The notes beneath the pieces are model-generated. The model saw only the letters and a list, made by a program, of their open reading frames with translations, did not search any database and was not told where the DNA came from. The position numbers and the translations under genes were made by a program. A stretch of DNA of 64,000 bases from Planctomycetota bacterium (GTDB lineage: Bacteria > Planctomycetota > PLA2): assembly GCA_027297745.1 (NCBI GenBank), contig JAPUHK010000024.1, positions 994-64,993 of the forward strand, written 5' to 3'. Shown here piece by piece: positions 15,237 to 64,000 of the stretch (the first letter of the stretch is position 1; each line of letters opens with the position of its first letter).

Positions 15237-16700
<1,464 letters not shown>

Positions 16701-16702
16701 GC

Positions 16703-17140
16703 CTATTGCACCTTTTCGAGGGGGGGAAACGTGACCGTGGTGGCCATATCGCTGAGCGGGATGTTGCGCAGCGCGTCGCGCACGGCCTGGTTGATGCGCT
16801 GCCAGTTCGTGCGCACGGGGCAGCAGAACTCGATGCCGCACTCGTCGGTGGCGGTGTCGAGGCACTCGGTCAGCGCGATGGGGCCCTCGGTAGCTTCGAT
16901 GATCTCCGCCACCGTGATCTCCTCGGCGGGGCGCGGGAGGCTGTAGCCGCCCTTCACGCCGCGGTACGAGACCAGCAGCCCCGCGCGGCCGAGCGCCTTC
17001 AGCGTCTTGCTGACGGTGGGCAGCGGCAGGCCCGCGCACTTGGCCAGGTCGCGGGCGTTCTGGACCTTCTTCTCGGGCGCGCCCGCGAAGTGGGTCATCA
17101 GAACGATGGCGTAGTCGGCCTGTCGGGTGAGTCTCAGCAT
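16703..17140 (-). CDS. Rrf2-family transcriptional regulator (IscR/SufR-like) with Cys ligands for an Fe-S cluster.
   Basis: N-terminal winged HTH ([39 protein letters not shown]). Cys cluster [17 protein letters not shown]. It sits 2 nt upstream of sufB and is the first gene of the suf operon. Confidence 0.85.
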
Positions 17141-17154
17141 GGGGCCCTCTCAAA

Positions 17155-27056: not shown

Positions 27057-27073
27057 TTCTGCTTTAGGAAACG

Positions 27074-28624: not shown

Positions 28625-30183
28625 TGCTGCTGGGTGCGGAAGCCTTTATCCCCGACGTCTCGGCGTTGTTCAGCCACTTCGGCGCGGAAGTCGTGCTGGC
28701 GTTGGGGATCCCCTTGCTCCTCGTGGCGGACCTGTTCACCCGCCGCAACAAGGAGTCGGTCACCGGCGCTCTCTCGCTGGTGCTGTTGACCGTCGCCCTC
28801 GTGCTCGGGCTCTGGCAGGACTCCTCCAGCAGCGTCGGTCTGACGAGCCTCTTGCGCGCGGACGGGCTGGCCAAGGGCTTCCGCGTGATCGCGCTGGCCA
28901 GCGGCGTGATCACCGCGGTGGCAGCACTGCGCGGCGGTGACGCGGTGCGCCACCGGACGGAGTTCTTCGTGCTCCTGATGGGGGCCGTACTCGGCGCCTG
29001 CCTCACGGCGGCCGCGAACGAGATGGCCATGCTGTACCTCGCGATCGAGACGCTGTCGATCGCCGGGTACCTGCTGGCCGGCTTCAAGCGGCGCGATCCG
29101 CAGGGCTCGGAGGCCGCGCTGAAGTACATCATCTTCGGCGCCATCTCCTCCGGCATGATGCTGTACGGCCTGACCTTGCTGTACGGCTTCGGCGGGACGA
29201 GCCTCTTGACCACGCCGCCGGGCGCCCCTGAAGGCACCGTTTCGCTGCAGTCCTATCTGCAAGAGAACGCCTCGGCGCTCGCCATGAAGCCCGCCTTCAT
29301 CGCCGCCGTGGTGCTGGTGTTCGCGGGCCTGGCCTACAAGATCGCCGCGGCGCCGTTCCATTTCTGGTGCCCCGACGTCTACCAGGGCGCGCCCACCTCG
29401 GTGGCGGGTTTCCTGGCCGTTGCCGGAAAGGGCGCCGGGCTGGCCGCCTTCATCCGCATCGTGCAGGCCGTCACCGGCGGCGCCGGCGACCACATCACGG
29501 ACCTCTTGGCCAGGCACAACGACGTGATCCGCACGGTGCTGATCGGCATGTCGATCGCGACCATGACGATCGGGAACGTAGCCGCGCTGCGCCAGCGCAA
29601 CGCCAAGCGGATTCTGGCCTACAGCGCCATCGCGCACGCGGGCTACATCCTGATGGGTCTCACGGTCACCAGCCGCGCGGGCGCGACGGCCATGCTCTTC
29701 TACATGGGCGTCTACGTGTTCATGACGTTCGGCGCCTTCTTCATGGTGGCGCTCGTGGAGCGCGAAAAGGGTAGCTGCGACCTGTCGGCCTTCGAGGGGC
29801 TCGGGTTCCGTGCGCCCTTCTTCGCCGTGTCCTTCGCGATCGTGCTGATCAGCCTGACGGGCCTGCCGCCGACCGGCGGCTTTTGGGCCAAGGTGTTCCT
29901 GTTCGAGGGCGTGTTCAGCTACGGCGGCGCGCACTCCTCGAGCCTGTACCTGTGGTTCGGCGTGATCGGCCTGCTCAACGGGGTCATCTCGCTGGTCTAC
30001 TACGCCCGCTTCCTGAAGGCCATGTACCTGGCCGACCCGGAGCACAACACCGGCTCCGGGCTGGAGCTCGGCCTGGCGGACAAGAGCATGGTGTTCGCCA
30101 TGACGCTGCCGCAGCTGGTGCTCGGCGTGATGTTCGCTGGGCTCTACGAGACGGCGCAGCTTCTGGTCGTGGATCTCTTCTGA
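28624..30183 (+). CDS. nuoN: NADH-quinone oxidoreductase subunit N.
   Basis: 519 aa. WCPDVYQGAPTSVAGFLAVAGKGAG motif. TGATG overlap with nuoM. Confidence 0.88.
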   Translation: MLLGAEAFIPDVSALFSHFGAEVVLALGIPLLLVADLFTRRNKESVTGALSLVLLTVALVLGLWQDSSSSVGLTSLLRADGLAKGFRVIALASGVITAVAALRGGDAVRHRTEFFVLLMGAVLGACLTAAANEMAMLYLAIETLSIAGYLLAGFKRRDPQGSEAALKYIIFGAISSGMMLYGLTLLYGFGGTSLLTTPPGAPEGTVSLQSYLQENASALAMKPAFIAAVVLVFAGLAYKIAAAPFHFWCPDVYQGAPTSVAGFLAVAGKGAGLAAFIRIVQAVTGGAGDHITDLLARHNDVIRTVLIGMSIATMTIGNVAALRQRNAKRILAYSAIAHAGYILMGLTVTSRAGATAMLFYMGVYVFMTFGAFFMVALVEREKGSCDLSAFEGLGFRAPFFAVSFAIVLISLTGLPPTGGFWAKVFLFEGVFSYGGAHSSSLYLWFGVIGLLNGVISLVYYARFLKAMYLADPEHNTGSGLELGLADKSMVFAMTLPQLVLGVMFAGLYETAQLLVVDLF

Positions 30184-41623: not shown

Positions 41624-42979
41624 GTGCCCATGAGCTACGACGTGATCGTTTTCGGGGCCGGCAACGCAAACGACGTGGTGCGCATGGCCGGGAAGGCGGG
41701 CCTGCGGGTGGCTGTGGTGGAGAAGGGGCCGCTCGGCGGCACCTGCGCCAACCGCGGCTGCATCCCCTCGAAGCTGATGATCGCGTACGCGGATCGCGCC
41801 GGCCAGGTGCGCTCTGCGGGCCGCTTCCACATAGAGGCGGAGCTGCGTTCGATCGACGGCGGCAAGATCATCGAGGAGACCTTCGGCTACACGCGCCGCT
41901 TCGACAAGCTGGTGGAGGACGGCTATCCGGAAGGCGTCGAAGTGCACCGCGGACACGGGACCTTCGTCGACAACCACACGGTCGCCGTCAACGGCACGGA
42001 GCTGCGCGGCGACAAGATCGTGCTGGCGACGGGCTCGCGCCCGCGCCGGCCCGACATCCCCGGGCTGCAGGGCACGCCGTACTGGACCAGCGACGAGGTG
42101 TTCGAGATGGAGCGCCTGCCGGCCTCGCTCACGATCGTCGGCGGCGGCTACATCGGCTGTGAGCTGAGCCACTTCTTCAACGGTGTGGGCGTCGAGACGA
42201 CCCTCCTGGTGCGCACCGAGCACCTCCTGGGCCGCGAGGACGAGGAGGCCTGCGCCGTCATGCAGAAGGGCTTCACAGAGCGCGTCCCGACACGCTTCAA
42301 CGTGTTCGTGGAGGCCGTGGCCCACGAAGACGGGAGCTTCCTGCTGACGCTCAGCGACGGGAGCGAGCACACCTCCGAGGCGCTGTTGTTCGCCATCGGC
42401 CGCATCCCCAACAGCGACCAGATCGCCATCGAGAACACGGACTTGAAGCCGAACGCGCATGGCTACGTCGAGTCCGACGACCACCTGCGCACATCGGTGC
42501 CGCACATCTATTCGCTGGGCGACGTGGCAGGGCGCTACTTCTTCACGCACACGTCCAGTTTCGAGGCGGCCTACCTCGGCCGGCAGATCGTCGAGGGGCT
42601 CGACGAGCCGATCGACTACGGGCCTGTAGGGCATGCAATCTTCACGTCGCCGGAGATCGCCGGCGTGGGGGCGACCGAGCAAGAGCTGAAGGAGCGCGGG
42701 GAGGACTACGTGGCGGCATCCGTGCCCTACTCGTCCTACACGAAGGGGCGCGCGCTCAAGGAAGAGCATGGGCTGTTCAAGCTCATCCTCGACCGCGAGG
42801 GCAAGATCCTCGGCTGCCACGTCGTCGGGCACGAGGCGTCGGTGCTTCTGCACGAGGTCTTGCCCGTGATGAAATGGCGCAACCACGTCAGCTCGATCAC
42901 GGACGTGATCCACGTGCACCCGTCGCTGCCGGAGATCGTGCGCGGCGCCGCGGGCAAGGCCGCGGCGCTGCTGAAGTAA
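41624..42979 (+). CDS. Class I pyridine nucleotide-disulfide oxidoreductase (Lpd/Gor/MerA-like flavoprotein disulfide reductase).
   Basis: FAD motif VIVFGAGNAN. Redox-active GGTCANRGCIPSK. NAD(P) Rossmann IVGGGYIGCE. C-terminal dimerisation His-Pro motif HVHPSLPE. Confidence 0.85.
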   Translation: MPMSYDVIVFGAGNANDVVRMAGKAGLRVAVVEKGPLGGTCANRGCIPSKLMIAYADRAGQVRSAGRFHIEAELRSIDGGKIIEETFGYTRRFDKLVEDGYPEGVEVHRGHGTFVDNHTVAVNGTELRGDKIVLATGSRPRRPDIPGLQGTPYWTSDEVFEMERLPASLTIVGGGYIGCELSHFFNGVGVETTLLVRTEHLLGREDEEACAVMQKGFTERVPTRFNVFVEAVAHEDGSFLLTLSDGSEHTSEALLFAIGRIPNSDQIAIENTDLKPNAHGYVESDDHLRTSVPHIYSLGDVAGRYFFTHTSSFEAAYLGRQIVEGLDEPIDYGPVGHAIFTSPEIAGVGATEQELKERGEDYVAASVPYSSYTKGRALKEEHGLFKLILDREGKILGCHVVGHEASVLLHEVLPVMKWRNHVSSITDVIHVHPSLPEIVRGAAGKAAALLK

Positions 42980-51401: not shown

Positions 51402-52745
51402 TCAGGGCTGCCGCGGAGCGCGCATCGCGCGCCCGTGCTGGTGCAGCGTCAGGGCCACGACCCTGCCGTCCTGCTTGTGGAAGGTGATGCGCGCGTCGAC
51501 CACTTTGTAGAAGAAGCTCGTCTCCGACTCGGGAAAGACCTGCAGCTTGGCCTGGCCTGTGGCCTGCACCATGAGCTTGTCGCCCTCGCGGGTGACCGTC
51601 AGCACAAACTGCGGCGTGAGCGCGTACGCGCCCGCGTAGGCGTCGTAGATCTTCGGGTCGACCTGCGCCTCCCGGGGCGGCTGCTCTCCACGCAGCAGCT
51701 TCATGATCCGCCGGCCGACGCTGTCGATCACGCCGTCGGCCGTGTTGCTGAGAATGACGAGAGCGTGCCCGCGCTGCGTGTCCACCGCTGCGAAGGAGTG
51801 GTAGCCGCCGGTCTGGCCGTTGTGCCTACGGTAGCCGAGCGGGTCGATGTGCCAGCCGAGCCCGAGCTTTTGCGCCTGGGGCGCGCCGGGCTTGTGGTGT
51901 ACCTTGCGCGCCAGCGCCAGGGCCGCGTGCATGCCGCCGTCCTTCTCTGCCAGATTCGCCTGCAGGAACGCCAGCATGTCGCGCACGGAGGAGCGAATGC
52001 CGCCCGCTCCGGCCAGCGTGGGGATGTCCCAGGTGGAGGACGGCACCCCGTTGGCCCGGTAGGGGGGTGCGAGCCGCTTGCGCATGTCCTGCGTGTACAC
52101 GATGCGCGTGCTCGGCATACCGAGCGGCTCCGTGATGCGCTCGACGAGCAGCGCCTCGTAGCTCTTGCCCGCCTTGCGCGCCAGCGCATGCCCTAGCAGG
52201 CCTGCGCCGAGGTTGCTATACGCGCTCTTCAGCCCTGGAGCGCGCTTCAAGGTGCAGCCGGACAAGAAGGCGTACATCAGCGCCGGCGTGTAGTCCGCGT
52301 AGGGATTGTTGGGATCCTTCGGGGCGAAGTTGCTCGGCATGCGCGGCAAGGCCGAGGTGTGCGTGGAGAGATCGACCAACGTGATCTTGCGCCCCCCGTG
52401 CGCCGGCACCTGCACCGTGTCGGGCAAGAGCTGCTCGAGCGGCTGGTCGAGGCGGACGCTGCCGTCCTGCACGAGCGCCGCCAACAGCACGCCCGTAAAG
52501 ACCTTGCTGATCGATCCGATCTCGTAGACGGTGTCCTGATCGGGCACGTCTTTCTCGCCCACTGTGACCTTGCCGTACCCGCGCACCCACGGCTGCTTGT
52601 CGCGCGCCTCGATCACGCCGATCGTCATCCCCACGACGCTGCCGCTCCCGATTACCGGCTGCGCGAGGGCGTCGACCTCCCGCGCGAGGTCTTTGGCGGC
52701 CGCGCACGGCAGGGCCACGAGCAAGATGAGCAGAACGCCTCTCAT
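51402..52745 (-). CDS. Secreted serine hydrolase of the beta-lactamase / penicillin-binding-protein family (class C-like).
   Basis: Signal peptide MRGVLLILLVALPCAAA. SxxK motif in YEIGSISKVF. A YxN-type motif (YSNLG). About 447 aa. Confidence 0.8.
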   Translation of the reverse strand: MRGVLLILLVALPCAAAKDLAREVDALAQPVIGSGSVVGMTIGVIEARDKQPWVRGYGKVTVGEKDVPDQDTVYEIGSISKVFTGVLLAALVQDGSVRLDQPLEQLLPDTVQVPAHGGRKITLVDLSTHTSALPRMPSNFAPKDPNNPYADYTPALMYAFLSGCTLKRAPGLKSAYSNLGAGLLGHALARKAGKSYEALLVERITEPLGMPSTRIVYTQDMRKRLAPPYRANGVPSSTWDIPTLAGAGGIRSSVRDMLAFLQANLAEKDGGMHAALALARKVHHKPGAPQAQKLGLGWHIDPLGYRRHNGQTGGYHSFAAVDTQRGHALVILSNTADGVIDSVGRRIMKLLRGEQPPREAQVDPKIYDAYAGAYALTPQFVLTVTREGDKLMVQATGQAKLQVFPESETSFFYKVVDARITFHKQDGRVVALTLHQHGRAMRAPRQP

Positions 52746-52990
52746 GACCACCCTCCAAGGGTAATCGACGGCGCGCCCACGCACGACGCTGCCGTCTGCG
52801 CACGCGCGCAAGCGCGTAGGCGCACGGTGGCGATTGGACGAATGCGTGCAGTCGTTCCAACCACGCCGCCCGTGCGCCGGATCCCCGTTGGAGCGCTCGA
52901 ACCTTATCGTGCACCGCGAGCGGCACCCGTGTTGCGTATGCGGAGGCGGGCTAAGGGACGAGCGGAGCCTCAACCGAGAGAGGAGAGCTC

Positions 52991-53496: not shown

Positions 53497-53566
53497 CCCA
53501 CGATCCCAACGAAAAGCGGGGCGCCCGTTTCAGGGCGCCCCGCGCTGTTGGCTGTGAGTCCGTGGA

Positions 53567-56395
53567 CTAGGGTCCGCTGACGTAGTTGCCGGCGTTGCCC
53601 CCGATGTTGCCGTTGGCGTCCAGCCAGGAGTCCAGGTGGATTCCGATGGCCGGGTCGGGGTTGGTCAGCCTGTCGATCAGCGTGCCCGTCAGCGGTCCCG
53701 CCATGGTCGGGTTGGGCGTGCCCGTGCGCAAGCTCGGGCCCGTCCCCGGCATGAGCGGGTGGTTGCTGGAGCTCGTCGGAGTTCCGTCCGCGAGCACGAT
53801 GCTGTCCAGGTTGTAAGCGATGCGGGTCATGAACGTGGCCGGGTCGAAGGCCGTCGCCGGCGCGACCGTCACGTTCTGGATGCCCGGATCGGCGAAGATG
53901 CCGTACCGGTTCGGGTTCTGGTCCAGCGGGTTGATAGCGCCGCCGTTCCCGTCGAACAGGAACAGCCCCGTACCCAGGCCGGCCACCATGTGCACCCAGA
54001 AGGGTGAGTTCATCTGGTTGCCGGAGTTCTGGCCGAAGTGCTGCCTCAGCTCCGTGAAGTCCAGTTGATCGTAGCTTCCGCTCGCCATGGCGGAACGGAA
54101 GGCCACGTACTCGGTCCCGTACTGCTGCATACCCGCCTCGGTGATGTGGCACGCGACGCAGTAGCGCGGGCCCTCCATGGTGGAGGTGACGCGGCCGCGG
54201 ATCGAGTGGGCCATCATCGCGTTGTGACCGAGCGAGGGCGTTTGGTTGGGGTCGCTCCCCTGCGCCTTGCGGTCGGAGAACGTGAAGATGCTGGACAGCT
54301 GGTTGTTGCGGTCCTCCCACTGGAAGAACATCTTCGTGTTCGAGCTGACCTGCGTGATCTCGTTGTGCGGGCTGATGCCCAGCGCCATGAACACGGGCGA
54401 CTGGTACACGAACTCGGCCTCGTCCTCCTCGAAGACGATGCGCTCGCCCGTGATGTTGCTGAAGTCATTCGAGTACTCGCCCTTCAGGTGACAGCCCATG
54501 CACGTGTTCGTCCACGAAGCGTGGCAGGACGCGCAGTCCAGGTCGTCCGTGTGGCTGAAGTTGCTCGGGACCGCGTTGTTCGCCTGGATCGGACCTATGC
54601 CGGTCGTGCCCAGGCCGTCGTCACGGCCCATCGCATAGGAGGCCTTGTCGCTGTACAGGGGCGCCCCGCTGAACGGGTGCGTCCGGCCCGTGTTCACGGT
54701 GACGTCCAGCGTCTGCGGGACGAAGTGACGCGCGCCCGTGAGACGGCTGTACAGGTAGAAGTGGCCGTCGCTCTCCAGCACGACGTGCGCCAGGGTGTTC
54801 CCCTCGCCGTCCACCGCCAGCTCCTGGGTGGTGTTGTCGTAGGCCGTGCCTTGAGCCGTCTGGGCATAGGCCGCGACGCCGCCGTGGCAGCTCTCGCAAC
54901 GGATCCCCACGGCGTGCTCCATGCGGCTCACGATCTTGCCGCCGCTCGGGGAGGTCACGTCGCCGCCGTGCAGGTCGAAGCTGCCGTGGCAGTCGATGCA
55001 GCCCATGCCGGCCTCGTAGTGCACGTCGGGCGGGGTGTCGTCGCGGCCGTCGTCGTCGTAGTCCTCCTCGAGGAGGTACTGGTTGCGGTTGCGCCCGTTG
55101 AACTCGCGGTTCCCCAACCGGATCAGGACGCCGTTCTGGTCGTAGATCGGCAGGTTGGGGTCGAACAGGCGCGTGTCGCCGGAGGTCGTCCGGTAACTTC
55201 CCGGCTGCGACGGGTACTGGAAGCCGCGCCGCACGTCCTGGTTCTGGTCGAGGCGGATGCCCCAGTACTGCATGACCGTGCGGTTCGAGCCCTGGTGGCA
55301 GCCGGCGCAGGCGTAGTCGTCGATGCCCTGGACGAACTCGCCGCTGGACAACGTCTTGGCCACGGTGCGGATCAGGTGGCGGGCGACGTGCGGCAGCTCG
55401 GGCTCGTCGATGTCGTCCGGATCGTACGGCTCCATGCGGTTGAGGTTCGGATCGTTGCTGGTGGAGCGCCCGCTCAGGCTGTGGCGCATGTGGCACGCCG
55501 AGCAACCCGAGCCGCGGTAGTCGCCGTAGCGGTTGTTCGCGCCGGCGCTGCCGAGGTGGCAGTCTCCGCAGGTGTAGGCGATCTGCTCGTGATAGAGCTT
55601 CGCCAGCGGGGAGTCCGTGATCGCCTGGCCCGTCAGCGGATCGATGTCGTCATCGAGCTCGGCGGCGTCGAAATCCGGGTTGTTGCGGATGTCGTTCGGG
55701 CCGTTGTTGAAGCGCCGGCTGTAGACCGGGAACTCCATCAGGTTTTGCACCGAACCGAAGGTCGTCGGGTCGAAGCTCTGGTCCGTGACGGCGCGAATGC
55801 CCAGGTCGGCGGCCGTGTCCTCGTAGCCCGTGTACCCCATCTGGTTGTCCACGCCGGCCGCGAACATCGCGCCGGAGAAGATGCCCATCTCGGTGGCGAT
55901 CGGGCTCTGGGACACGATCTGCGCGTGGTTCGCGTGGCACTGGCCGCAGCTGCGGTTCTGCGTGACCACGCGGATGTCGGCCGGGCTGACGAACTGCAGC
56001 CAGTCCAGCGCGCTGTAGGTCTGCCCGTTCGCGGCCGTGTAGTCCGGGAACTTGTCCGGACCGGCCAGGGTCAGCCGGTTGAAGTAGGCGTGGTCGTTGT
56101 TGATCCAGTTCTGCCGGTCGCCGATCTCGGGCGGCGCCGGGACGTGGCTCGAGGCCCTGTCCGTCCCGTTCGGGTTTCCGCCGTGGCAGGTGGTGCACAG
56201 CAGGTTGCTGGCGCCCGTGAAGGGGTGTGGGTTCTCGAGGCCCGGGCCCCCGTAGTTGTTGTCCACGGAGCCGTTGTGGCAGGTCATGCACGACTGGGCC
56301 GACGCTGTGATCGCGCGGCCGCTGGAGTCGACGCAGCCCGTCACGACGAACGCCAGTAGGAAGATGACTGAGAGGAGACCTCTGTGATGAGTCAT
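53567..56395 (-). CDS. Undecaheme c-type cytochrome lipoprotein (outer-membrane / extracellular multiheme cytochrome candidate).
   Basis: Lipobox LAFVVTGC. Eleven CxxCH motifs (CMTCH, CTTCH, CGQCH, CGDCH, CSACH, CAGCH, CIDCH, CESCH, CASCH, CMGCH, CVACH) in about 940 aa. The ATG at 56395 has an alternative GTG at 56407. Confidence 0.85.
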   Translation of the reverse strand: MTHHRGLLSVIFLLAFVVTGCVDSSGRAITASAQSCMTCHNGSVDNNYGGPGLENPHPFTGASNLLCTTCHGGNPNGTDRASSHVPAPPEIGDRQNWINNDHAYFNRLTLAGPDKFPDYTAANGQTYSALDWLQFVSPADIRVVTQNRSCGQCHANHAQIVSQSPIATEMGIFSGAMFAAGVDNQMGYTGYEDTAADLGIRAVTDQSFDPTTFGSVQNLMEFPVYSRRFNNGPNDIRNNPDFDAAELDDDIDPLTGQAITDSPLAKLYHEQIAYTCGDCHLGSAGANNRYGDYRGSGCSACHMRHSLSGRSTSNDPNLNRMEPYDPDDIDEPELPHVARHLIRTVAKTLSSGEFVQGIDDYACAGCHQGSNRTVMQYWGIRLDQNQDVRRGFQYPSQPGSYRTTSGDTRLFDPNLPIYDQNGVLIRLGNREFNGRNRNQYLLEEDYDDDGRDDTPPDVHYEAGMGCIDCHGSFDLHGGDVTSPSGGKIVSRMEHAVGIRCESCHGGVAAYAQTAQGTAYDNTTQELAVDGEGNTLAHVVLESDGHFYLYSRLTGARHFVPQTLDVTVNTGRTHPFSGAPLYSDKASYAMGRDDGLGTTGIGPIQANNAVPSNFSHTDDLDCASCHASWTNTCMGCHLKGEYSNDFSNITGERIVFEEDEAEFVYQSPVFMALGISPHNEITQVSSNTKMFFQWEDRNNQLSSIFTFSDRKAQGSDPNQTPSLGHNAMMAHSIRGRVTSTMEGPRYCVACHITEAGMQQYGTEYVAFRSAMASGSYDQLDFTELRQHFGQNSGNQMNSPFWVHMVAGLGTGLFLFDGNGGAINPLDQNPNRYGIFADPGIQNVTVAPATAFDPATFMTRIAYNLDSIVLADGTPTSSSNHPLMPGTGPSLRTGTPNPTMAGPLTGTLIDRLTNPDPAIGIHLDSWLDANGNIGGNAGNYVSGP

Positions 56396-56630
56396 TTCTG
56401 ATCTCACTTTGCCCGACCCCTCCGGCGGCGACCGCCGGAGTCCGAGCGAGAGGGCGTGAGAGCCGGCCCCACGAGGGAGAGACCAACACGCGGTAGTCCG
56501 ATGCTAGGAACGGGTATCACTTGGAGGGGGGCCTGAGAGACGCAACTTGAGACTTCAGCCGGAGCGTCTCGTTGTGAGGCGGCTCGATCGGAAACGCCGG
56601 CGGTCTGCCCCACAAACCGTGCGGGGCCGC

Positions 56631-57278
56631 TCAATTGACGGCCGGCACCCATGCCGTGGGCACGTGGCACTCGTGGCAGTTGTCGACGAAGCCCAGCGGG
56701 ATGTGGGGGGGATTGGTGGTGTTGTTCCGGTCGTCCACGTGGCACGTGACGCACTCGGTGTCCACGGGGATGAAGTTGCCGACCCGCGCGCCCGGGTGGC
56801 AGCGGTAGCAGGCCACCAACGTGTGGGCGCCGAGCAGCGGGAAGCGCGTCCGGTCGTGGAGCGCGATCTGGCCCACGGGGCGCCAGGTCTGCTCGGTGTG
56901 GCAGCGGGTGCAGTCCTTGTCCAGGTCGCCGTAGTGGTAGTCCTCGTGGCAGCCCGTGCAGCCCTGCGAGTGGAAGATCGCCACAGGCCCGCGGTCGTTG
57001 TGGCAACGCAGACATTGCGCCTGCTCATGAGCCCCGTTGAGAGCGAAGCCGGTGTTGGCCAGGTGGTTGAACTTGAAGTCGCTCTTGAGCTTGTTCCAGT
57101 CACCGCCCACGTGGCACAGCTGACAGTCGGCCGGGAACGAGTCGTGCGGCAGGACCGGTCCGAAACCCGCCCACCAACGGTGCTGCTTGCCGGTCAGCGG
57201 GCGCGCGGCGGCGCAGGCCAACAGGATCGCGCTCAGGAGCGCGATCGCGATCGGGCGTCTACGGAATCGGAATCGCAT
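56631..57278 (-). CDS. Periplasmic heptaheme c-type cytochrome.
   Basis: Signal peptide MRFRFRRRPIAIALLSAILLACAAA. Seven CxxCH motifs (CQLCH, CLRCH, CTGCH, CTRCH, CYRCH, CVTCH, CHECH) in about 215 aa. A GAGAG ribosome-binding site lies 12 nt after the OMP stop codon. Confidence 0.85.
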   Translation of the reverse strand: MRFRFRRRPIAIALLSAILLACAAARPLTGKQHRWWAGFGPVLPHDSFPADCQLCHVGGDWNKLKSDFKFNHLANTGFALNGAHEQAQCLRCHNDRGPVAIFHSQGCTGCHEDYHYGDLDKDCTRCHTEQTWRPVGQIALHDRTRFPLLGAHTLVACYRCHPGARVGNFIPVDTECVTCHVDDRNNTTNPPHIPLGFVDNCHECHVPTAWVPAVN

Positions 57279-57290
57279 GGGTATCAACTC

Positions 57291-59081
57291 TCAAAAGCCC
57301 TTCTGCCAGGTGAACCCAGCGGACCACGAGATCTCCTTGTCGTAGGCGACGACCTCCCCGAACACGTAGACGTCCCAGTTTCCGACGCGATAGACGCTCA
57401 AGCTGCCGCGCAGACGTTGCTGCACCAGGTCGTCCCGGTTCGCGTTCAGGCCGTGGATGTGGTGGAAGGCAAGCTCGTACATCAGGTCCCACCTGCCCTT
57501 GGCCGTCGTGCGGCCGTAGAGGAGACGCACGCCCGCCACGCTCTCGTACTGGCCGATGTTGCCGTAGCCGACGAGGTCCAGGTGCGCCTGGCGCCGCAGC
57601 GTCTGTTCGACGCCGATGTCGAACGCGCCGCCGCTGCCGTCCTCGTCGACCCAGCCGCTGACGTGCCCGTGCAGGCGCCTGTCGGCGCCCAGCATCTTCC
57701 AGAGGTTCAGCGCCAGCCGGTCGAACTCGTTGTTCGCCAGGTCGGCGGCGAAGACGATGGGACGGTATTCGCCCTCCCGCAAGAGCTCTGCGAACGCCCA
57801 GTGCTGATAGAGGAACTGGATGCCGCCCCGGGCGAAGGTGCGGTTCAGGGAGGCGATGGCCTGCGTGATCTCTATGCCTGAGCCCTTGATCGGGTCGCTG
57901 GCGGAGTAGAAGTCGACCCAGATCGTGGCGTGGAAGGCCCAGCCGTCCACCGGCAGAACGTGCATGCGGGCCACCAGGAGGTCGCGGTCCGGGTTGCCGT
58001 TGTTCCAGGTCTTCTGGAAGCCGCCGGCGATCAGGAAACGCTCGTTCGGGTCCTGCACCCACTCGTACCAGCCCGCCAGCTGGAAGTCCTCGAAGGTGTC
58101 GAAGTCGTCGTTCAGCTCCGGCATGTAGCCCATGCTCACGCCGTAGCGGTGCCCGTTGTCGCCCCTATGCGCCCACTGCAGGCCGTCCAGCACGCCGAAC
58201 TCGGGCATGCCGTGCTGCAGGAAGCGGCCGACCTCCCAGCGGTTGCTGTTGAAGCGATTTCCGCCGCGGAAATAGGAGAGGCGGCGCAGCAGGAAGTCCC
58301 CCGTGAGGTCGCTGTTGTACTTGTAGTTCGCCAGGTAGGCCGCCTCCGCGTTGAGGCGGAAGCCGCCGCCCTTGCCGAAGGGATTCGAGTAGGTCAGGTC
58401 CGTGCCGACTCGCAAGTAGGAGCTGGTGAAGTCGCTGTCGGGGTTGTCCGTCACCGCGGCGCTCACATAGGTGAAGCCGGCGAGCCCCTTCCGGCGGTTC
58501 TTGGGGCGCACGGCTCCGGTCTCGGCCAGCAGCGACTTGCTCGTGGACCACTCCTCGTCCTTGTTCTTCCAGGGCGGGTGTTCCGGAGTCTCGCCCTCGG
58601 TGCCCGCGGCAGCAGCGCCTCCGGCTGCCGCTGCACCTGCGGCGACTCCGGCGCCGTCTTTGTCCTTGTCTTCCGGCTCGCCTTCGCCTTCCGGCTTGGT
58701 GCCTTCCCCTTCAGGCTGTCCGCCTTCGGGTTCCGGTTGCAGTTCGGGCTCCGGCTCAGGATCGGGTTGCGTGAAGCGCGAAGCCGGGATCAGCACTTCG
58801 CCGCGCGTGCCCGCTTCGGGAACGAACTTGGCGTCGCGCATCTCGACCACCGCGCTGCGCGCGCGGACCGAGAGCACGGTTCCGGAATAGGTGCCGCCCT
58901 GGCGCGGGAAGAAGGACACGACGTCGCCGATGGCGAGGCCGTCCCGCTTGCCGCGGTCGATGGTGACCGAGGCTCCGGGTCCCGCGGAGCTCACGCGCAG
59001 GGACACACGTTCCAGCTCTTCCTGCGCCCATGCGGACACGCAGGTCCACAGGACCATGGAGAGCAGAATTACAAGCCTCAC
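57291..59081 (-). CDS. Outer-membrane beta-barrel protein (porin-like), candidate sheath of a porin-cytochrome conduit.
   Basis: A GTG start overlaps the upstream stop codon (GTGA) and is preceded by GGAAGGAAGA. Signal peptide MRLVILLSMVLWTCVSAWA. An acidic PEPE/Gly-Ala low-complexity linker. Alternating amphipathic beta-strands. C-terminal aromatic residues FTWQKGF. Confidence 0.75.
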   Translation of the reverse strand: MRLVILLSMVLWTCVSAWAQEELERVSLRVSSAGPGASVTIDRGKRDGLAIGDVVSFFPRQGGTYSGTVLSVRARSAVVEMRDAKFVPEAGTRGEVLIPASRFTQPDPEPEPELQPEPEGGQPEGEGTKPEGEGEPEDKDKDGAGVAAGAAAAGGAAAAGTEGETPEHPPWKNKDEEWSTSKSLLAETGAVRPKNRRKGLAGFTYVSAAVTDNPDSDFTSSYLRVGTDLTYSNPFGKGGGFRLNAEAAYLANYKYNSDLTGDFLLRRLSYFRGGNRFNSNRWEVGRFLQHGMPEFGVLDGLQWAHRGDNGHRYGVSMGYMPELNDDFDTFEDFQLAGWYEWVQDPNERFLIAGGFQKTWNNGNPDRDLLVARMHVLPVDGWAFHATIWVDFYSASDPIKGSGIEITQAIASLNRTFARGGIQFLYQHWAFAELLREGEYRPIVFAADLANNEFDRLALNLWKMLGADRRLHGHVSGWVDEDGSGGAFDIGVEQTLRRQAHLDLVGYGNIGQYESVAGVRLLYGRTTAKGRWDLMYELAFHHIHGLNANRDDLVQQRLRGSLSVYRVGNWDVYVFGEVVAYDKEISWSAGFTWQKGF

Positions 59082-61156
59082 CGCTTTTCTTCCTTCGCGC
59101 CCCGGCGGAACGGGTTCTCGTCCTCGCCGTGGCAATCGGCGCACCTGCCCCCCATCGGGCGATAGCGGATGAAGTCTTTACCGTTCTCGCGAACTGGTAA
59201 ATGGCAGGCGGAGCAGGCCAGGGGGGTGTGGGCCTCCCCGAGCTGGAAGCTCGAGTCCAGGTCGTGGCGGAAGCTCAGGTCCGTGAAGGCCGCAGCGGCA
59301 GGCCTGTGGCAGCTCCGGCAGTCGGTCAGCCCCTTCACCTCGAACTGCCCGGCATGGGAATCCTGGTGGCAATCCGAGCAGTGGCCGCCCTTGGCGCGGG
59401 CCCAGGTGCGCCCGGCCTCGTCCGGCTCCCGCAGGGGGGTGTGGCAGTCGGCGCAGTCGACTTTCTTGTGCTGGCCGACCAGGGCGAAGCCGGTCCAGCG
59501 CTTGTGGTCGAAGCCGTTCGGGAAGGTCCGGAACGAGCTCTCGCCGTGGCAGCGCTCGCAGCCGGTCTTGCCCTTGAAGGTGCGCGGCATGCCGGGCTTG
59601 TCGAAGTCGTTCTTGTGCGGATCGATGTGGCACGTGTCGCACCCCTCGTACACGCCGAAGCGATCCGAGACGCGGCCGAACGTGCGGCCGAAGCGGTCGG
59701 GTTCCGGGGTGCGCGGGTGGCAGGCCTCGCACTCCTCCTGCGCGTGGGCCGCGACTAGCGGGAACCCCGTCCACGGGCCGTGGTCGAAGGCCTCGGGCGG
59801 GATGTCCCGGAAGTCCGTGGCCAGGTGGCAGTCGGCGCAGCGGCCGTACGTGCTCGCCGATGTCTCCGGCGCGAACTGCTCGAAGAACCCCTCGTGCGGG
59901 TCCGGATGGCATCCGGCGCACTTGACGGGAGTCCCGTGGAACACGCGCGGGCTGCCCTCGATGGGCGCCGCCTCGTGGCACGCGTTGCAGTCGGTCTCGA
60001 TATGGCTGCCGATCAAAGGCAGGGACGTCTCCGCGTGCATCTCGACGCTGAAGATGTGCGGCTCGAAGTAGAGCGTCCCGTGGCAGGCGACGCACGCGCC
60101 GCTCTTGAACGAACCCTCGCCGAACTGGCCGCCGTGGGGATCCTCGTGGCACGCGGCGCAGTCGTCGGCCGCGCGGGCCGGGTAGCGGGCCTTGAAGTCC
60201 TCGTGGTTGAGATCGTGGCAGTCCGCGCAGCCCACTTCGTGATGCGGATCGGTGAGCGAGAACCCGGAGCTTTCGTGCTGCTCCACGGTCATCTCCCCGA
60301 GCTGCCTGTCGTTCCAGGTCGTGTGCTCCGCGCGATGGCACACGTCACAGGCGGCGCCGGTGGGGCGGGAGACCTGCAACGCGACGCCGTCGACGAAACC
60401 CTCGGCGTGCGAGTTCGCGTGGCAGTCCACGCACATGCGCGCGGCCGGGGCGCGATTCTCGCCTAGCGCCTCGAGCGTGTAGGGCTCGTTCGCGTGGCAG
60501 GAGCGGCACTCCATGTTGCTGTGGCCGCCGATCAGCTGCAGGTAGTCCTCGTGGCCGCGCGACTCCAGCTCCGCCCAGGCGCGTTGCCCGTGGCACTGGA
60601 CGCAGCTCAGCGCCGCGTAGCGGCCCTCGTGCACATCCCCGTGGCACGTCGTGCACTCCTGGTCGAGCCCGATGTAGCGCGTCGCGCCCTCCGGCAGGAT
60701 CTCGATGTTCACCTGCAGGTGGCACTCGTTGCAGGCCAGCTCGATGTGCCGGCCGTCCATGGGGAAGCGGATCATGTTGTGGTCGAACTCCGCCGGGTCG
60801 GGCACGCCCGCGGCCGCGAAGCTCTGCCGGTTGACGATGGCGAAGCCCGCGCCGTGGTGCTCGCTGTGGCACAACGCGCACAGCATGGCCTTGTTCCCAA
60901 TCACGCCGTGGAGTCCGTTTCCGGCGGCGATCTGCGCGTCGATCGTCTTGTGGCACTCGAGACACGCATCCGACATGCTCAGGAACAATCCGCCGTGGCA
61001 CGCGGAGCAGCTCTCGCCGCGGTTCAGGTCGCCCACGCGCGCGTGGACGGCCGTGACCTCTCCCGGTGACTTGCGCCCGAGGTGGCCGATCACGACGTAG
61101 AGCACCGCCGCAGCCGAGGCCAGGCCGATCCAGAGGCCGGGACGTCCCAGCTTCAA
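59078..61156 (-). CDS. Membrane-anchored 23-heme c-type cytochrome.
   Basis: N-terminal signal-anchor (LWIGLASAAAVLYVVIGHL). 23 CxxCH motifs counted by eye in 692 aa, about one per 30 residues. A TTG start overlaps the upstream stop codon. Confidence 0.85.
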   Translation of the reverse strand: MKLGRPGLWIGLASAAAVLYVVIGHLGRKSPGEVTAVHARVGDLNRGESCSACHGGLFLSMSDACLECHKTIDAQIAAGNGLHGVIGNKAMLCALCHSEHHGAGFAIVNRQSFAAAGVPDPAEFDHNMIRFPMDGRHIELACNECHLQVNIEILPEGATRYIGLDQECTTCHGDVHEGRYAALSCVQCHGQRAWAELESRGHEDYLQLIGGHSNMECRSCHANEPYTLEALGENRAPAARMCVDCHANSHAEGFVDGVALQVSRPTGAACDVCHRAEHTTWNDRQLGEMTVEQHESSGFSLTDPHHEVGCADCHDLNHEDFKARYPARAADDCAACHEDPHGGQFGEGSFKSGACVACHGTLYFEPHIFSVEMHAETSLPLIGSHIETDCNACHEAAPIEGSPRVFHGTPVKCAGCHPDPHEGFFEQFAPETSASTYGRCADCHLATDFRDIPPEAFDHGPWTGFPLVAAHAQEECEACHPRTPEPDRFGRTFGRVSDRFGVYEGCDTCHIDPHKNDFDKPGMPRTFKGKTGCERCHGESSFRTFPNGFDHKRWTGFALVGQHKKVDCADCHTPLREPDEAGRTWARAKGGHCSDCHQDSHAGQFEVKGLTDCRSCHRPAAAAFTDLSFRHDLDSSFQLGEAHTPLACSACHLPVRENGKDFIRYRPMGGRCADCHGEDENPFRRGAKEEKR

Positions 61157-63378
61157 CTTTTGCCCCCGAAGAAGAAGGGGTAGTACGCGAGCGCGTAGAC
61201 GATGTGGATTACCACCAGCAGCACCATCAGCGCCGCCATCCAGCGGTGCAACCAGCGCCAGGTGCCGAGCACCGCGCGCAGGTCCTCATAGTGCGCCGCC
61301 ATGAGCGCCGTGCGGTGTGCCTTGCGCGCGAGCTGCATCGTTTCCTTGATCTGCTCCTCGTCGATGCCCTCTTCACGCCCTTCGTCCTCCAGGCGTGTGA
61401 GCAAGCGCTTCAAGCCGCCCCGGCCGGTCAGCATGGACAGCACGCGCCCAAGGAACCCCGAGCCCCATTGCTTCTTCTCGATCAGCTCATCCACCGCGCT
61501 GCGCGCCCGTTCGCGGTACTCCCGTTGGCCCTGGTCCCACTCCTCGGACATGCGGCCGAGGCGGGCCTTGACCTCCTGCAGCTCCAGCTCGCGTCCGTTC
61601 GCGGCGCGCGGCACGCAGGCGTAGAAGTAGCGTCCGATGGCGCCGGTGACCAACAGCACCGCCAGCGCCCAAAAGGCGTGCCCCGCGACGGTGTTGCCGG
61701 GCGCCATGGCGCCGTGCAGCGTCGCCAGCAAGAGCGCCAGGATGCCCGTGGCGACGTGGCTCGTCATCCAGATCTGCAGGGAGCCGACGTTGAGCCGGAA
61801 GCGCGGCGAACGCCGCACCAGATAAAGGAGGTTCACGAGGATCAGCGCGGTCGCGCCGATGCCCAGCCACAGGCCGAGGCCGAGGCCCGGGCGCAGCAGC
61901 GCATGCTTCGGGTGCGCGGCGCGCGCGGAGGCCGGCAGGCCGTAGTAGTCCGCGTGCACCATGACCCAGACCAACGCGGCCAGCGAGAGTGTGAAGCCGA
62001 TGCCGAGCGCGTGGACCAGGCCCGTGCCCTGCTCGCCGAGCTGGGGCGCCGCCTTGCGCAGCGACGGGTCGAAGGACACGCCCGAGCGTTCGAGCAGCTC
62101 CAGCGGCGCGCTGCCGCCCGCCATCACGAACACCTCGTCGTTCGGCAACGTGCGCGTCGCCGTGCCGTAGCCGCTCTGCACCGTGAGCTCGACCGAGTCC
62201 GGACGGATCGCCCGCACTTCGCTGTTGAACAGGACCTCGAGCTTGCCCTCGCGCAGGCATTCGTCCAGGCGCTCCTGGTTCTTGGGTCGAATGCGGAAGA
62301 AGCTCTCCTTGCGGTACGAGAGCGTCACCTGGTTCCCCGGTTGCTCCGCGAGACCCATGGCCGCCTCGACCGCGCTGTCGCCGCCGCCGACGACCAACGT
62401 GCGCCGGTGCTGGTACGAGTGGGCGTCCAGCAGGCTGTAGGCCACCTTGGACAGGTCTTCGCCTTCCACGCCGAGCTTGCGCGGCGAGCCGCGGCGGCCC
62501 ACCGCCAGACAGACGTTGCGCGCCGTGTAACTGCCGGTCTTGGTGCGCACGACGTAATTGCCGTCGTCGTCCCGGCTAAGACCCACGAACGTCTCCTGGG
62601 AGCGGATCGGCAGCTGCTGCTCCTCCGCGATGTGCGCCCACAGCTCGACCAGCTCTTCCTTCGTGTAACTGGACTTCAGGCGGCCGTAGAGCGGCAGGTC
62701 GACCGGCTGGCTCATGATCAGCTTGCGCCGCGGGTACTTCGCGACCGTGCCGCCGGGCCCGCTCTCCTGGTCCAGCGTCACGAACTTCAGGCCGTGGCGC
62801 TTGGCCTCGAGCGAACACGCCAGGCCGGCGGGGCCGGCGCCGACCACGCACAGGTCCAGCGTGCCGTTGGGGTTGGGCTCGTGCTCCAGGCGCCGCGCGA
62901 CTTCGCCCGCTACGGCCGTTCCGTGGTCGACGGCGGTCTTGATCAGCGAGTGCGCGGTCACCTCACCCGCGAGGAACAGCCCGGGCGAGCCCACGGCCTC
63001 GAGCTGTTCGGTCAGGACCGGGATGTCCCGGCGCTCGGCGATGTCGCTCAGCGTGACCTTGATCGCGCCGACGGGGCACTCGCGCTCACACAGGGCATGG
63101 CCGACGCAGCGCGCGCCGTGCACGACCATGGCCTGGCCGTGCACGAGCTTCAGCACCTGGTCCTCGGGACAGACGTCGACGCACGTGCCGCAGCCCAGGC
63201 AGCGGGACAGATCGACGACGGGTTGGGCGAGCTGGGCCTTGTCACTCCCCTGACGGACCGCCTGCTCACGGTCGCCCAGCGCGCGGCGCATGCGCCGGAG
63301 CTCCAGGCGCCGCGCGATCGCCACCATGAGGGATAGGCCTAGGGCGACTACGACTCCAATAAGGAGGGGCCAACTCAT
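61153..63378 (-). CDS. Membrane-bound fusion oxidoreductase: N-terminal TM helix + 2x[4Fe-4S] ferredoxin + FAD/NAD(P)-binding (TrxB/GltD-like) domain + C-terminal polytopic domain with His-bearing TM helices (putative cytochrome b).
   Basis: CLGCGTCVDVCP and CVGHALCERECP. Rossmann motifs VVGAGPAGLA and VVGGGDSAVEAA. Five or six C-terminal TM helices with conserved His (MVHADYYG, TSHVATGILALLLATLHG, GHAFWALAVLL, VVIHIVYAL). GGAG ribosome-binding site before the ATG at 63378. Confidence 0.75.
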   Translation of the reverse strand: MSWPLLIGVVVALGLSLMVAIARRLELRRMRRALGDREQAVRQGSDKAQLAQPVVDLSRCLGCGTCVDVCPEDQVLKLVHGQAMVVHGARCVGHALCERECPVGAIKVTLSDIAERRDIPVLTEQLEAVGSPGLFLAGEVTAHSLIKTAVDHGTAVAGEVARRLEHEPNPNGTLDLCVVGAGPAGLACSLEAKRHGLKFVTLDQESGPGGTVAKYPRRKLIMSQPVDLPLYGRLKSSYTKEELVELWAHIAEEQQLPIRSQETFVGLSRDDDGNYVVRTKTGSYTARNVCLAVGRRGSPRKLGVEGEDLSKVAYSLLDAHSYQHRRTLVVGGGDSAVEAAMGLAEQPGNQVTLSYRKESFFRIRPKNQERLDECLREGKLEVLFNSEVRAIRPDSVELTVQSGYGTATRTLPNDEVFVMAGGSAPLELLERSGVSFDPSLRKAAPQLGEQGTGLVHALGIGFTLSLAALVWVMVHADYYGLPASARAAHPKHALLRPGLGLGLWLGIGATALILVNLLYLVRRSPRFRLNVGSLQIWMTSHVATGILALLLATLHGAMAPGNTVAGHAFWALAVLLVTGAIGRYFYACVPRAANGRELELQEVKARLGRMSEEWDQGQREYRERARSAVDELIEKKQWGSGFLGRVLSMLTGRGGLKRLLTRLEDEGREEGIDEEQIKETMQLARKAHRTALMAAHYEDLRAVLGTWRWLHRWMAALMVLLVVIHIVYALAYYPFFFGGKS

Positions 63379-63435: not shown

Positions 63436-63978
63436 CTACTTGCCGCCGGCGCTTCGCGCCCTGAGCTCCCGGTCCCGGGAGCTGCCGCTGACGTTCATGG
63501 ACGTGGCCTTGCGTCGCGTCTCGCCCTGGCTGAAGGCCGGGGCAGGCGGGCCCTCGACGGGCTGGGCGGCGCTCACGGGCAGGGCGGCCGACTCGACATA
63601 CGCGCGAGCAGCCTTCAGGCAGGCGTCGAACTCGCCGTCGAGATCAGAGACCCGCTTGGCCAGCGCGCGCGCTTCGCCCTGGATCTCGGACACGGCCACG
63701 GGGTTGAGGTCGTTGCCCAGGAAGAGCGCGTGGTCGCGCAGGCTGTTGTTGACCGCATCATAGGACGCCAGGGCGGGCTCCGCGGCCGCGACGATGGCGT
63801 GGTAACGCTCGCGAGTCTCCACCAAGCGGTTGCGGCTGCGCTGGCGCAGCTCCACGCTGCTGATGTCCTTGAGGTCATCGGCCCACTGATCGAAGACCGG
63901 ATCGCTCGAGTCCTTCATGTTCTCGATGCTGTCCCGAAGCTTTTCGGCCTGCTCCTCGGAGTTCTCGATGGCCGTCAT
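63436..63978 (-). CDS. Hypothetical protein (coiled-coil rich), possibly N-terminally truncated by the window edge.
   Basis: 180-aa track ORF ending 57 nt upstream of the oxidoreductase gene. No family recognised. Confidence 0.4.
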   Translation of the reverse strand: MTAIENSEEQAEKLRDSIENMKDSSDPVFDQWADDLKDISSVELRQRSRNRLVETRERYHAIVAAAEPALASYDAVNNSLRDHALFLGNDLNPVAVSEIQGEARALAKRVSDLDGEFDACLKAARAYVESAALPVSAAQPVEGPPAPAFSQGETRRKATSMNVSGSSRDRELRARSAGGK

Positions 63979-64000
63979 GAACTCCCCGTAGGCCGTAACC

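Follow-up and report, generated by a model that had tools for sequence, protein, structure and literature searches.

A conserved 23-heme cytochrome of Planctomycetota with a probable inner-membrane anchor: a candidate periplasmic limb of a PCC3-like electron conduit

The 64,000-nucleotide stretch of contig JAPUHK010000024.1 analysed here (positions 994 to 64,993 of the forward strand; Planctomycetota bacterium, lineage PLA2, assembly GCA_027297745.1), called the window below, contains on its minus strand a gene (59078..61156, TTG start) for a 692-aa c-type cytochrome with 23 CxxCH heme-binding motifs. The locus raises the question of what a chain of so many hemes is for: whether it is genuine, how its hemes are arranged, where in the cell envelope it resides, and between which partners it carries electrons. 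We consider it moderately probable that the 23-heme protein is a wire anchored in the inner membrane, which would form the periplasmic limb of a trans-envelope electron conduit resembling PCC3, a bioinformatically defined, untested gene cluster of Alpha-, Beta- and Gammaproteobacteria (He et al. 2017, PMC5566968; Gallionellaceae pangenome preprint, PMC9900912).

A regular-expression search of the product of the open reading frame (ORF) found exactly 23 CxxCH motifs, the number given in an earlier note on this DNA, and not a single CxxxCH or Cx4CH variant. All 46 Cys residues of the protein fall within the motifs, while outside them it has 31 His and 11 Met residues; the density amounts to one heme site per 30.1 aa. 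Shuffling the protein 20,000 times yielded a mean of 0.24 CxxCH motifs and a maximum of 4, and just three six-frame ORFs of the window contain more than one CxxCH: this gene and two downstream neighbours (with 11 and 7). The count of 23 is real and far beyond chance.

The earlier note had also pointed to a frameshift or an assembly error, with an artificial fusion as the result, as a possible source of such a protein. The search for homologues among 5.8 billion proteins returned more than 1,400 matches, and the best 120 of them, which we analysed, cover 97-100% of the query with 48-56% identity (one copy is 99% identical) and are mostly 670-725 aa long. Exactly 23 CxxCH motifs were found in 119 of these 120 proteins, and all 23 motifs form invariant columns of the alignment. 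Those that carry a name are annotated as "hypothetical" or "cytochrome c3 family" proteins, all from metagenome-assembled genomes (MAGs) of Planctomycetota. The G+C content at third codon positions (GC3) is uniformly 0.92 along the frame, typical for coding frames of the window (overall G+C 68%). The homologues begin at the same position as the predicted TTG start, which overlaps the upstream stop codon in the sequence TTGA. Since 120 full-length homologues come from different assemblies and 119 of them show the same number of motifs, and since no point in favour of an artefact was found, we regard the possibility of a frameshift or of a mis-assembly that joins several smaller cytochrome genes as negligible. 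The AlphaFold2 (AF2) model of the protein has a mean pLDDT of 83.

The 23 hemes are distributed over eight modules: a three-heme head, six triheme repeats and a two-heme tail. The divergent N-terminal head (aa 30-103; 60848..61069, minus strand) carries hemes at C50, C65 and C93 and the conserved residues His38, His83, His100, His101 and Met61. Internal alignment delimits the six tandem repeats (aa 118-620; 59297..60805, minus strand) as aa 118-192, 194-281, 286-362, 364-447, 451-540 and 543-620, i.e. units of ~75-90 aa with pairwise identity of 23-42%, which follow the pattern F-x-H ... L-x-G-x-H-x4-CxxCH-x17-25-CxxCH-x-D-x-H-x-G-x-F-x8-20-CxxCH. The C-terminal half-repeat with two hemes (aa 623-692; 59081..59290, minus strand) retains the conserved His631 and His643 and is a candidate for the end that docks at an outer-membrane barrel (see below).

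Among the non-motif residues, 26 His are conserved at a level of at least 87%, as are Met61 and Met133, to serve 23 hemes. Each full repeat has at least three conserved non-motif His residues, and repeats 2-7 lack a conserved Met, which leads to the prediction of bis-His ligation. A candidate distal ligand, mostly His, can be named for every heme, so that all of them are predicted to be six-coordinate and mostly bis-His. With 26 conserved His and 2 Met for 23 hemes, the absence of distal ligands between the motifs, which the earlier note had considered as an objection, is not borne out.

The relationship of the repeats to known cytochrome families is remote. Pfam analysis matched the protein to PF14522 (Cytochrome_C7) with 105.5 bits against a cutoff of 24.8, with the best stretch (aa 564-618) corresponding to one repeat; Cytochrom_c3_2 and the families of MtrC/MtrF domain II/IV likewise scored above their cutoffs. 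The curated c7 model of NCBIfam, TIGR04257 (nanowire_3heme), was missed (18.1 bits, cutoff 40). The comparison of the family profile with all PDB sequences reported the dodecaheme cytochrome GSU1996 of Geobacter (3OV0) as the best match, with 36 bits and three repeat hemes in register, followed by OcwA (6QVM) and by chain A of 6R2Q (MtrA); neither filament cytochromes nor relatives of NapC/CymA were found in it. Hence, the suggestion of the earlier note that the heme density reflects polymerised triheme domains of the c7/c3 type holds as far as the parse into 3, six times 3 and 2 hemes, the Cytochrome_C7 score and the GSU1996 match are concerned, with the repeats no more than remotely c7-like, while its comparison with nanowire-type cytochromes finds no counterpart in the nanowire_3heme score or among the filament proteins.

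The dodecaheme cytochromes GSU1996 and GSU0592 of Geobacter sulfurreducens, polymers of c7-type triheme domains, share with the window protein the tandem triheme modules and the spacing of ~26-30 aa per heme. In GSU1996 each triheme domain holds one His-Met heme, a feature not expected in the window protein, for which bis-His ligation is predicted throughout; moreover, the Geobacter protein is a soluble 12-heme cytochrome whose gene is not accompanied by genes for a barrel or an inner-membrane partner.

Two explanations by known families can be weighed at this point. High heme density, taken alone, would fit a secreted cytochrome that polymerises into a "nanowire" like OmcS, OmcE or OmcZ; given that no filament cytochrome appeared among the PDB sequence matches, and that the protein has an N-terminal anchor and is encoded with an inner-membrane partner and a barrel, we find this hardly credible. 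The second is a NapC/NirT/CymA-like quinol dehydrogenase whose heme tail has been lengthened and whose electrons come from the quinone pool through its anchor, and not from the fusion protein encoded next to it; it would share the layout of CymA and NapC, namely a single N-terminal transmembrane (TM) helix followed by c hemes. Nevertheless, NapC/NirT is missing from the Pfam and NCBIfam matches at E<=0.01 (five Pfam families were matched), the DmsE/MtrA decaheme model TIGR03508 was missed with 60.9 bits against a cutoff of 192.2, and the gene is coupled by overlap to, and conserved together with, a gene for a dedicated transmembrane protein predicted to bind two b hemes, which makes a quinol dehydrogenase very improbable. 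The combination of a DmsE/MtrA score above the cutoff with a barrel partner of the MtrB_PioB type, as in the MtrA family, was likewise not found. Judged by these family tests, the cluster belongs neither with the Mtr, Geobacter Pcc and CymA systems nor with the filament cytochromes. Identity of the MtrA, CymA or OmcS type was rejected, since the protein falls short of the respective family models.

Beyond the close homologues, an exhaustive profile search of 1.84 billion representatives (clusters at 50% identity) reported 6,126 proteins at E<=1e-3, of which 1,186 at E<=1e-30. Among the best 150, which we examined, 109 look full-length, judging by the anchor, the S-P-G motif and a heme close to the C-terminal end, and 99 of these 109 have 20 (n=8), 23 (n=35), 26 (n=53) or 29 (n=3) hemes. 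This series suggests that the family gains or loses whole triheme modules. The same repeat also occurs in giant relatives with 36-94 CxxCH motifs (P0270, P0329, P0351 and others); P0270 (2,321 aa, 94 CxxCH) stands alone at its locus (L007), without genes for a barrel or a fusion protein like those described below. A scan of genome contigs with the 23-heme protein alone detected three remote multiheme loci at 24% identity, all of them in unrelated clusters. In the literature on 23-heme cytochromes, on extracellular electron transfer (EET) clusters of Planctomycetota and on multiheme cytochromes of Emticicia we found no description of the family; a 2026 preprint on EET machinery in peat deals with other architectures.

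Where the protein resides depends on the fate of its N-terminus, which the earlier note had taken for a membrane anchor and not a cleavable signal. Hydropathy analysis (aa 6-27) and the AF2 model (helix at aa 6-26) agree on a TM helix (aa 6-26; 61079..61141, minus strand), and the hydrophobic stretch of ~19 residues has the length of a TM segment. The helix is followed in the 120 homologues by a common junction, A-V-V-D-x-x-R-[T/K]-S-P-G-P-L-x-x-V-H (the last residue is H38), in which Arg at position -3 is present in 110 of the 120 proteins and Pro-Gly in all 120. For signal peptidase I to cut, positions -1 and -3 must be occupied by small residues and position +1 must not be Pro. The junction lacks a small -1/-3 pair together with a permissible +1 residue, and because its conserved Arg(-3) and Pro(+1) are unsuited to signal peptidase I, a retained signal-anchor is favoured. 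On the strength of these heuristics, i.e. the length of the helix and the D-x-x-R-[T/K]-S-P-G junction, the proposal of an anchor finds support, and the helix is apparently an uncleaved tether, probably to the inner membrane.

The alternative is a Sec signal that is cleaved off to release a soluble periplasmic multiheme shuttle, or an electron "capacitor", instead of a fixed strut. Most periplasmic multiheme cytochromes, GSU1996 and MtrA included, are soluble, 23 hemes could hold 23 electrons, in the Emticicia orthologue described below the hydrophobic segment is followed by an A-Q site, and the giant relatives exhibit classic signal peptides. Against it, the D-x-x-R-[T/K]-S-P-G motif is kept in the 120 close homologues with residues that disfavour signal peptidase I, the positions that flank the helix are conserved as expected of a retained segment of TM length, and heme counts that change module by module are more readily expected of an element of defined length than of a storage protein. 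We therefore hold the soluble form to be unlikely for the window protein. As to the giants, the classic cleavable signal peptides were seen in those that we inspected (e.g. P0270 and P0329).

Analysis of the genomic neighborhood revealed candidate partners of the probably tethered cytochrome. Five consecutive minus-strand genes extend from 63378 to 53567, with a terminator at the end of the series and a DUF2959 gene directly upstream. The first three genes, which encode a fusion protein, the 23-heme cytochrome and a barrel protein, overlap start-on-stop, with 4-nt overlaps between fusion and cytochrome genes (TTGA) and between cytochrome and barrel genes.

The first gene (61153..63378, minus strand) encodes a 741-aa inner-membrane protein, delineated by Pfam and PDB matches and by TM segments, in which an N-terminal TM helix is followed by a ferredoxin-like 4Fe-4S dicluster domain (aa 53-110), a FAD-NAD(P) domain (aa 175-440) and a 5-TM domain. 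The dicluster domain is matched by Fer4_7 and Fer4_10 of Pfam. One of its Fe-S motifs, at C60, is a canonical CxxCxxCxxxCP; the other is CxxHxxCxxxCP both in this protein and in its Emticicia counterpart, so one cluster may be His-ligated. The flavoprotein domain (Pfam Pyr_redox_3, 3e-45) is of the two-Rossmann type and resembles thioredoxin reductases (TrxR) and ferredoxin-NADP reductases (FNR); its closest solved relatives are Bdr/YpdA (6e-22), thioredoxin reductases and TrxR-type ferredoxin-NADP reductases. The 5-TM domain exhibits the motif WX3HX13H twice, at 537 and 707, with TGAIG on the helix between them (TM4). The residues H541/H555 and H711/H725 are invariant in 120 homologues of the fusion protein (~740 aa), which keep TGAxG as well, and some of these homologues match PF01794 (Ferric_reduct) or PF01292 (cytochrome-b561-type). 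We suggest that the 5-TM domain binds two b hemes by means of the four conserved His residues. A cluster of Arg residues after the TM helix suggests, according to the positive-inside rule, that the Fe-S and flavin domains face the cytoplasm.

The third gene (57291..59081, minus strand) encodes a 596-aa outer-membrane protein with a signal peptide, a 6-strand N-terminal domain, a disordered linker rich in Pro and Glu, a predicted β-barrel of 22 strands (aa 199-595 in the model) and a C-terminal Phe. In the region ahead of the barrel (aa 23-195), the small six-strand domain is conserved and may be a periplasmic docking element. The linker, rich in Pro, Glu, Gly and Ala, is variable and disordered (PEPEPELQPEPEGGQPEGEG...), and is far longer in the window copy than in its relatives.

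The last two genes encode putative lipoproteins, a 7-heme cytochrome of 218 aa (56631..57287, minus strand; 7 CxxCH, lipobox LLAC) and an 11-heme cytochrome of 946 aa (53567..56407, minus strand; 11 CxxCH, lipobox VTGC), and in each of them the lipobox Cys is the sole Cys outside the heme motifs. The 7-heme cytochrome is 38% identical to one repeat of a 40-heme cytochrome from Emticicia. The 11-heme protein, a candidate for a cell-surface cytochrome, shows a similarity to ExtM that is weak and below threshold, and no sequence relative of it was found in the PDB. The two genes are separated by an untranslated gap of 223 nt (56408-56630), in contrast to the overlapping first three genes. A hairpin that resembles an intrinsic terminator (53516..53543, minus strand) has a stem of 11 G-C pairs with a T run behind it; located 24 nt past the last cytochrome gene, it marks the probable end of the operon.

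The genes for the fusion protein, the cytochrome and the barrel were found together in three further loci. L004 from a Planctomycetes MAG encodes a 23-heme member, with a 7-heme gene downstream and another cytochrome gene ~7 kb further on; L005, on a contig of 1.67 Mb, also has a 23-heme member, accompanied by downstream cytochromes with 7 and 10 hemes; and L006, likewise from Planctomycetes, contains a 26-heme variant and a downstream cytochrome with 24 hemes. The 7-heme proteins of L004 and L005 are homologues of the window protein (209-218 aa), while the 882-aa counterpart of the 11-heme cytochrome in L005 is matched by position and heme count alone. The 24-heme protein of L006 (13035-14918) is a single lipoprotein of 627 aa that takes the place of the 7-heme and 11-heme lipoproteins. 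This swap suggests that the outer cytochromes are interchangeable and that the three core genes are fixed. In addition, at least 29 of the top 120 cytochrome homologues come from a contig identical in size to that of a top-120 homologue of the fusion protein, which indicates, indirectly, that the two genes share contigs. The synteny with genes for a membrane redox protein and a 22-strand barrel, conserved and coupled by overlaps, lends support to the idea, put forward in the earlier note, that an electron wire may link the inner-membrane oxidoreductase to the outer-membrane conduit; the wire would then span the periplasm.

A split version of the system comes from a cultured organism. The tblastn search of PLSDB plasmids reported one match, on the 100-kb plasmid pEMTOL02 of Emticicia oligotrophica DSM 17448 (Bacteroidota), where the annotated genes of the cluster (L008, NC_018749.1 81299-89995) are arranged in the order ccsA (a fused gene for cytochrome maturation), a 281-aa protein, a 440-aa protein, a 635-aa cytochrome, a 1,001-aa cytochrome and a 538-aa homologue of the barrel. 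The 281-aa hypothetical protein has 5 TM helices, WX3HX13H at 91 and 250 and the motif SGVVG, the 440-aa "NAD(P)-binding domain" protein combines a TM helix, Fer4 and the flavoprotein, and the two cytochromes contain 23 (635 aa) and 40 (1,001 aa) CxxCH motifs. In local blastp comparisons, the flavoprotein aligned with residues 5-436 of the fusion protein (39% identity, 1e-100), the small membrane protein with residues 477-732 (24%, 4e-17), and the two 23-heme proteins with each other (28.5% over 684 residues, 1e-77); the match of the barrels is weak (6e-7). The existence of split and fused forms (a "Rosetta stone") is evidence that the flavoprotein and the di-heme-b domain work together. Because the genes in Emticicia come in the opposite order to the domains of the fusion protein, the fusion does not result from a missed stop codon. 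The plasmid location suggests horizontal mobility of the system.

When plasmids were searched by tblastn with the di-heme-b domain of the window, no match was obtained, and the Emticicia orthologue, used as a bridge query, retrieved distant homologues. They were found on plasmids of Methylophaga pinxianii (L009) and Alteromonas macleodii (L010), where the membrane protein is flanked by a "2Fe-2S cluster-binding" protein of 612-644 aa and a c3-family cytochrome of ~255 aa, with no barrel; the Alteromonas group adjoins a [NiFe]-hydrogenase gene set. These loci follow the same three-part logic, in which a di-heme-b protein of the membrane stands between a redox protein on the cytoplasmic side and a multiheme cytochrome on the periplasmic side.

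PCC3 is the described system to which the cluster bears the closest resemblance, as judged from published descriptions and motifs. Its periplasmic cytochromes contain 21, 24 or 27 hemes in triheme repeats and have been suggested to span the periplasm (PMC5566968, PMC9900912), and a ~300-aa inner-membrane protein common to PCC3 and PCC4 has been suggested to bind two b hemes and to resemble ferric-reductase-domain (FRD) proteins (PMC5566968). The likeness extends to three components: a barrel with 22 predicted strands, in Leptothrix cholodnii (PMC5566968) as in the window protein; a heme-dense cytochrome of triheme repeats (~26-30 aa per heme) with counts that step by three (21/24/27 there, 20/23/26/29 here); and an inner-membrane protein of five TM helices, of which TM3 and TM5 carry WX3HX13H and TM4 carries S/T-G-x-x-G (SGXXG in PCC3, TGAIG in the window, SGVVG in Emticicia). 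PCC3 also includes a multiheme cytochrome predicted to be extracellular, a place for which the 7-heme and 11-heme lipobox cytochromes would be the candidates here.

The differences from PCC3 are as follows. The window cytochrome has a conserved N-terminal membrane anchor, and its family follows a series of 3n+2 hemes with repeats of ~75-90 aa, as opposed to 3n hemes and repeats of ~66 aa. The inner-membrane protein is fused here (adjacent in Emticicia) to a ferredoxin and an NAD(P)-flavoprotein, which implies a cytoplasmic donor, whereas PCC3 has been proposed to draw on the quinone pool. With 7 and 11 hemes, compared to a median of 34, the outer cytochromes are small, and the hosts belong to Planctomycetota and Bacteroidota.

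A more general likeness exists to MtrCAB of Shewanella and OmaB-OmbB-OmcB of Geobacter, in which a multiheme cytochrome that faces the periplasm, a barrel and a lipoprotein surface cytochrome are co-encoded, and in which a heme chain insulated by the barrel is the likely route through the outer membrane. The inner-membrane module, on the other hand, recalls the FRD carriers (NOX, FRE, STEAP, MsrQ/YedZ), in which two b hemes, stacked and bound by His pairs, conduct electrons outward through the membrane. What the fusion protein shares with them is a cytoplasmic NAD(P)H-flavin module and, on two helices, two His pairs with a spacing of 13 residues. It differs in having a flavoprotein of the TrxR/FNR type in place of the FNR-like dehydrogenase domain of NOX, an Fe-S domain intercalated, 5 TM helices instead of 6, an insert of ~115 aa that would be cytoplasmic, and a chain of c-type hemes as the acceptor in place of O2 or a metal ion. 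The same FRD parallel was drawn for PCC3 by He et al. (PMC5566968).

Altogether, these features suggest the following route. A donor in the cytoplasm, most likely NAD(P)H, would deliver electrons to the TrxR/FNR-like flavin domain of the fusion protein, from which they would pass through the ferredoxin-like Fe-S domain to the two b hemes on two TM helices; while the domains and motifs are observed, the donor and the binding of heme b are deduced from what is known of FRD proteins. The 23-heme cytochrome would be tethered beside the fusion protein, a contact suggested by the overlapping, conserved adjacent genes, and its head module would take over the electrons at the outer face of the inner membrane. 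Its eight modules, with the ligands described above, could then relay them across the periplasm. Decaheme MtrA is ~8 nm and dodecaheme GSU1996 ~12 nm long, i.e. 0.8-1.0 nm per heme. Extrapolation to 23 hemes at 0.8-1 nm per heme gives a wire of ~18-23 nm, which is within the range reported for Gram-negative periplasms. The C-terminal end may meet the 22-strand barrel, from which the 7-heme and 11-heme lipoproteins would carry the electrons on to acceptors outside the cell, for example humics, partner cells or oxides of Fe(III)/Mn(IV).

The same conduit could work inward, in electron uptake or metal oxidation, with Fe(II)/Mn(II), cathodic minerals or partner cells as the source. Chains of hemes and TrxR-type FNRs are reversible in principle, and PCC3, the nearest described system, was described from Fe(II)/Mn(II) oxidisers, in which its electrons are depicted as flowing inward (PMC5566968, PMC9900912). 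Here, an NAD(P)-flavoprotein in the cytoplasm forms the end of the inner-membrane module, and to move electrons from the level of Fe(II) to NAD(P)+ (about -320 mV) would be strongly uphill against an inside-negative potential, with no visible coupling site in the operon; moreover, the window encodes a normal complex I (nuoLMN), so that NADH would be available as a donor. The redox span from NAD(P)H to c hemes, from which the path to metal oxides also runs downhill, and the inside-negative membrane potential favour outward flow, and we rate inward operation as rather doubtful. With outward flow, the system would serve mainly as a quinone-independent sink that regenerates NAD(P)+, and alone it would dissipate the membrane potential, as enzymes of the NOX type do.

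Several points weigh against the proposal of an anchored, outward-conducting wire. The retention of the anchor is judged by heuristics, and plausible cleavage sites in the Emticicia orthologue and in the giant relatives indicate that tethering is not universal in the wider family. The occupant of the barrel could be either the tail of the 23-heme protein or the 7-heme lipoprotein. The closest solved relatives of the flavoprotein, taken here as the putative entry point of NAD(P)H, are thiol-disulfide reductases and ferredoxin reductases. Finally, PCC3 has been proposed to work inward in iron oxidisers (PMC5566968, PMC9900912).

We speculate, as a tentative extension that we deem possible but short of probable, that the whole assembly is a fully hard-wired, quinone-independent circuit in which FAD, Fe-S clusters, two b hemes, 23 c hemes and outer-membrane cytochromes are connected in series, without a break between NAD(P)H in the cytoplasm and the cell surface. 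The tethered protein would act in it as a rigid, length-defined strut, tuned by the number of triheme modules (20/23/26/29), possibly to the width of the periplasm, and the circuit would function as an "electron exhaust" akin to NOX. If so, it would allow largely fermentative or heterotrophic Planctomycetota and Bacteroidota to dump reductant on minerals or humics without a respiratory chain.

As regards the surroundings of the operon, the DUF2959 gene directly upstream is incomplete at the end of the window (63436..64000, minus strand; Pfam DUF2959, 6e-22, profile positions 63-188 of 190). It also precedes the cluster in L004 (6461-7444) and L005 (6587-7387), where its product is lipoprotein-like, and it may be an unrecognised accessory component of the cluster. 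A beta-lactamase-family protein (PF00144) with DUF3471 is encoded directly past the operon terminator (51402-52973, minus strand). Elsewhere in the window there are genes for nuoL, nuoM and nuoN of complex I (25098-30183, plus strand), a SufBD Fe-S assembly protein (15237-17153, minus strand) and a flavoprotein similar to dihydrolipoyl dehydrogenase (41624-42979, plus strand). The NuoL sequence is identical to MCZ6571795.1 of a Planctomycetota MAG. The promoter scan gave no match in the 53-64 kb region, and the Rfam and ARAGORN scans of the entire 64 kb detected no RNA genes.

Known EET systems draw on the quinone pool and rely on diffusing shuttles to cross the periplasm. For PCC3, a single tethered cytochrome that reaches from one side of the periplasm to the other has already been hypothesised and never demonstrated; what is different or new here is the conserved anchor, the 3n+2 series with its longer repeats, the fusion to or adjacency with a flavoprotein, and a large family in Planctomycetota with a plasmid copy in Bacteroidota. 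The anchor, the module-quantised heme counts and the fused entry module of the NAD(P)H type are testable features, the environmental footprint of the family is large (1,186 representative clusters at E<=1e-30), and a cultured carrier of the split version exists. If the proposed role is true, the family would represent a new way of connecting reductant in the cytoplasm directly with minerals, provide a compact module with which electron export could be engineered, and point to an unsuspected electroactive capacity of widespread Planctomycetota.

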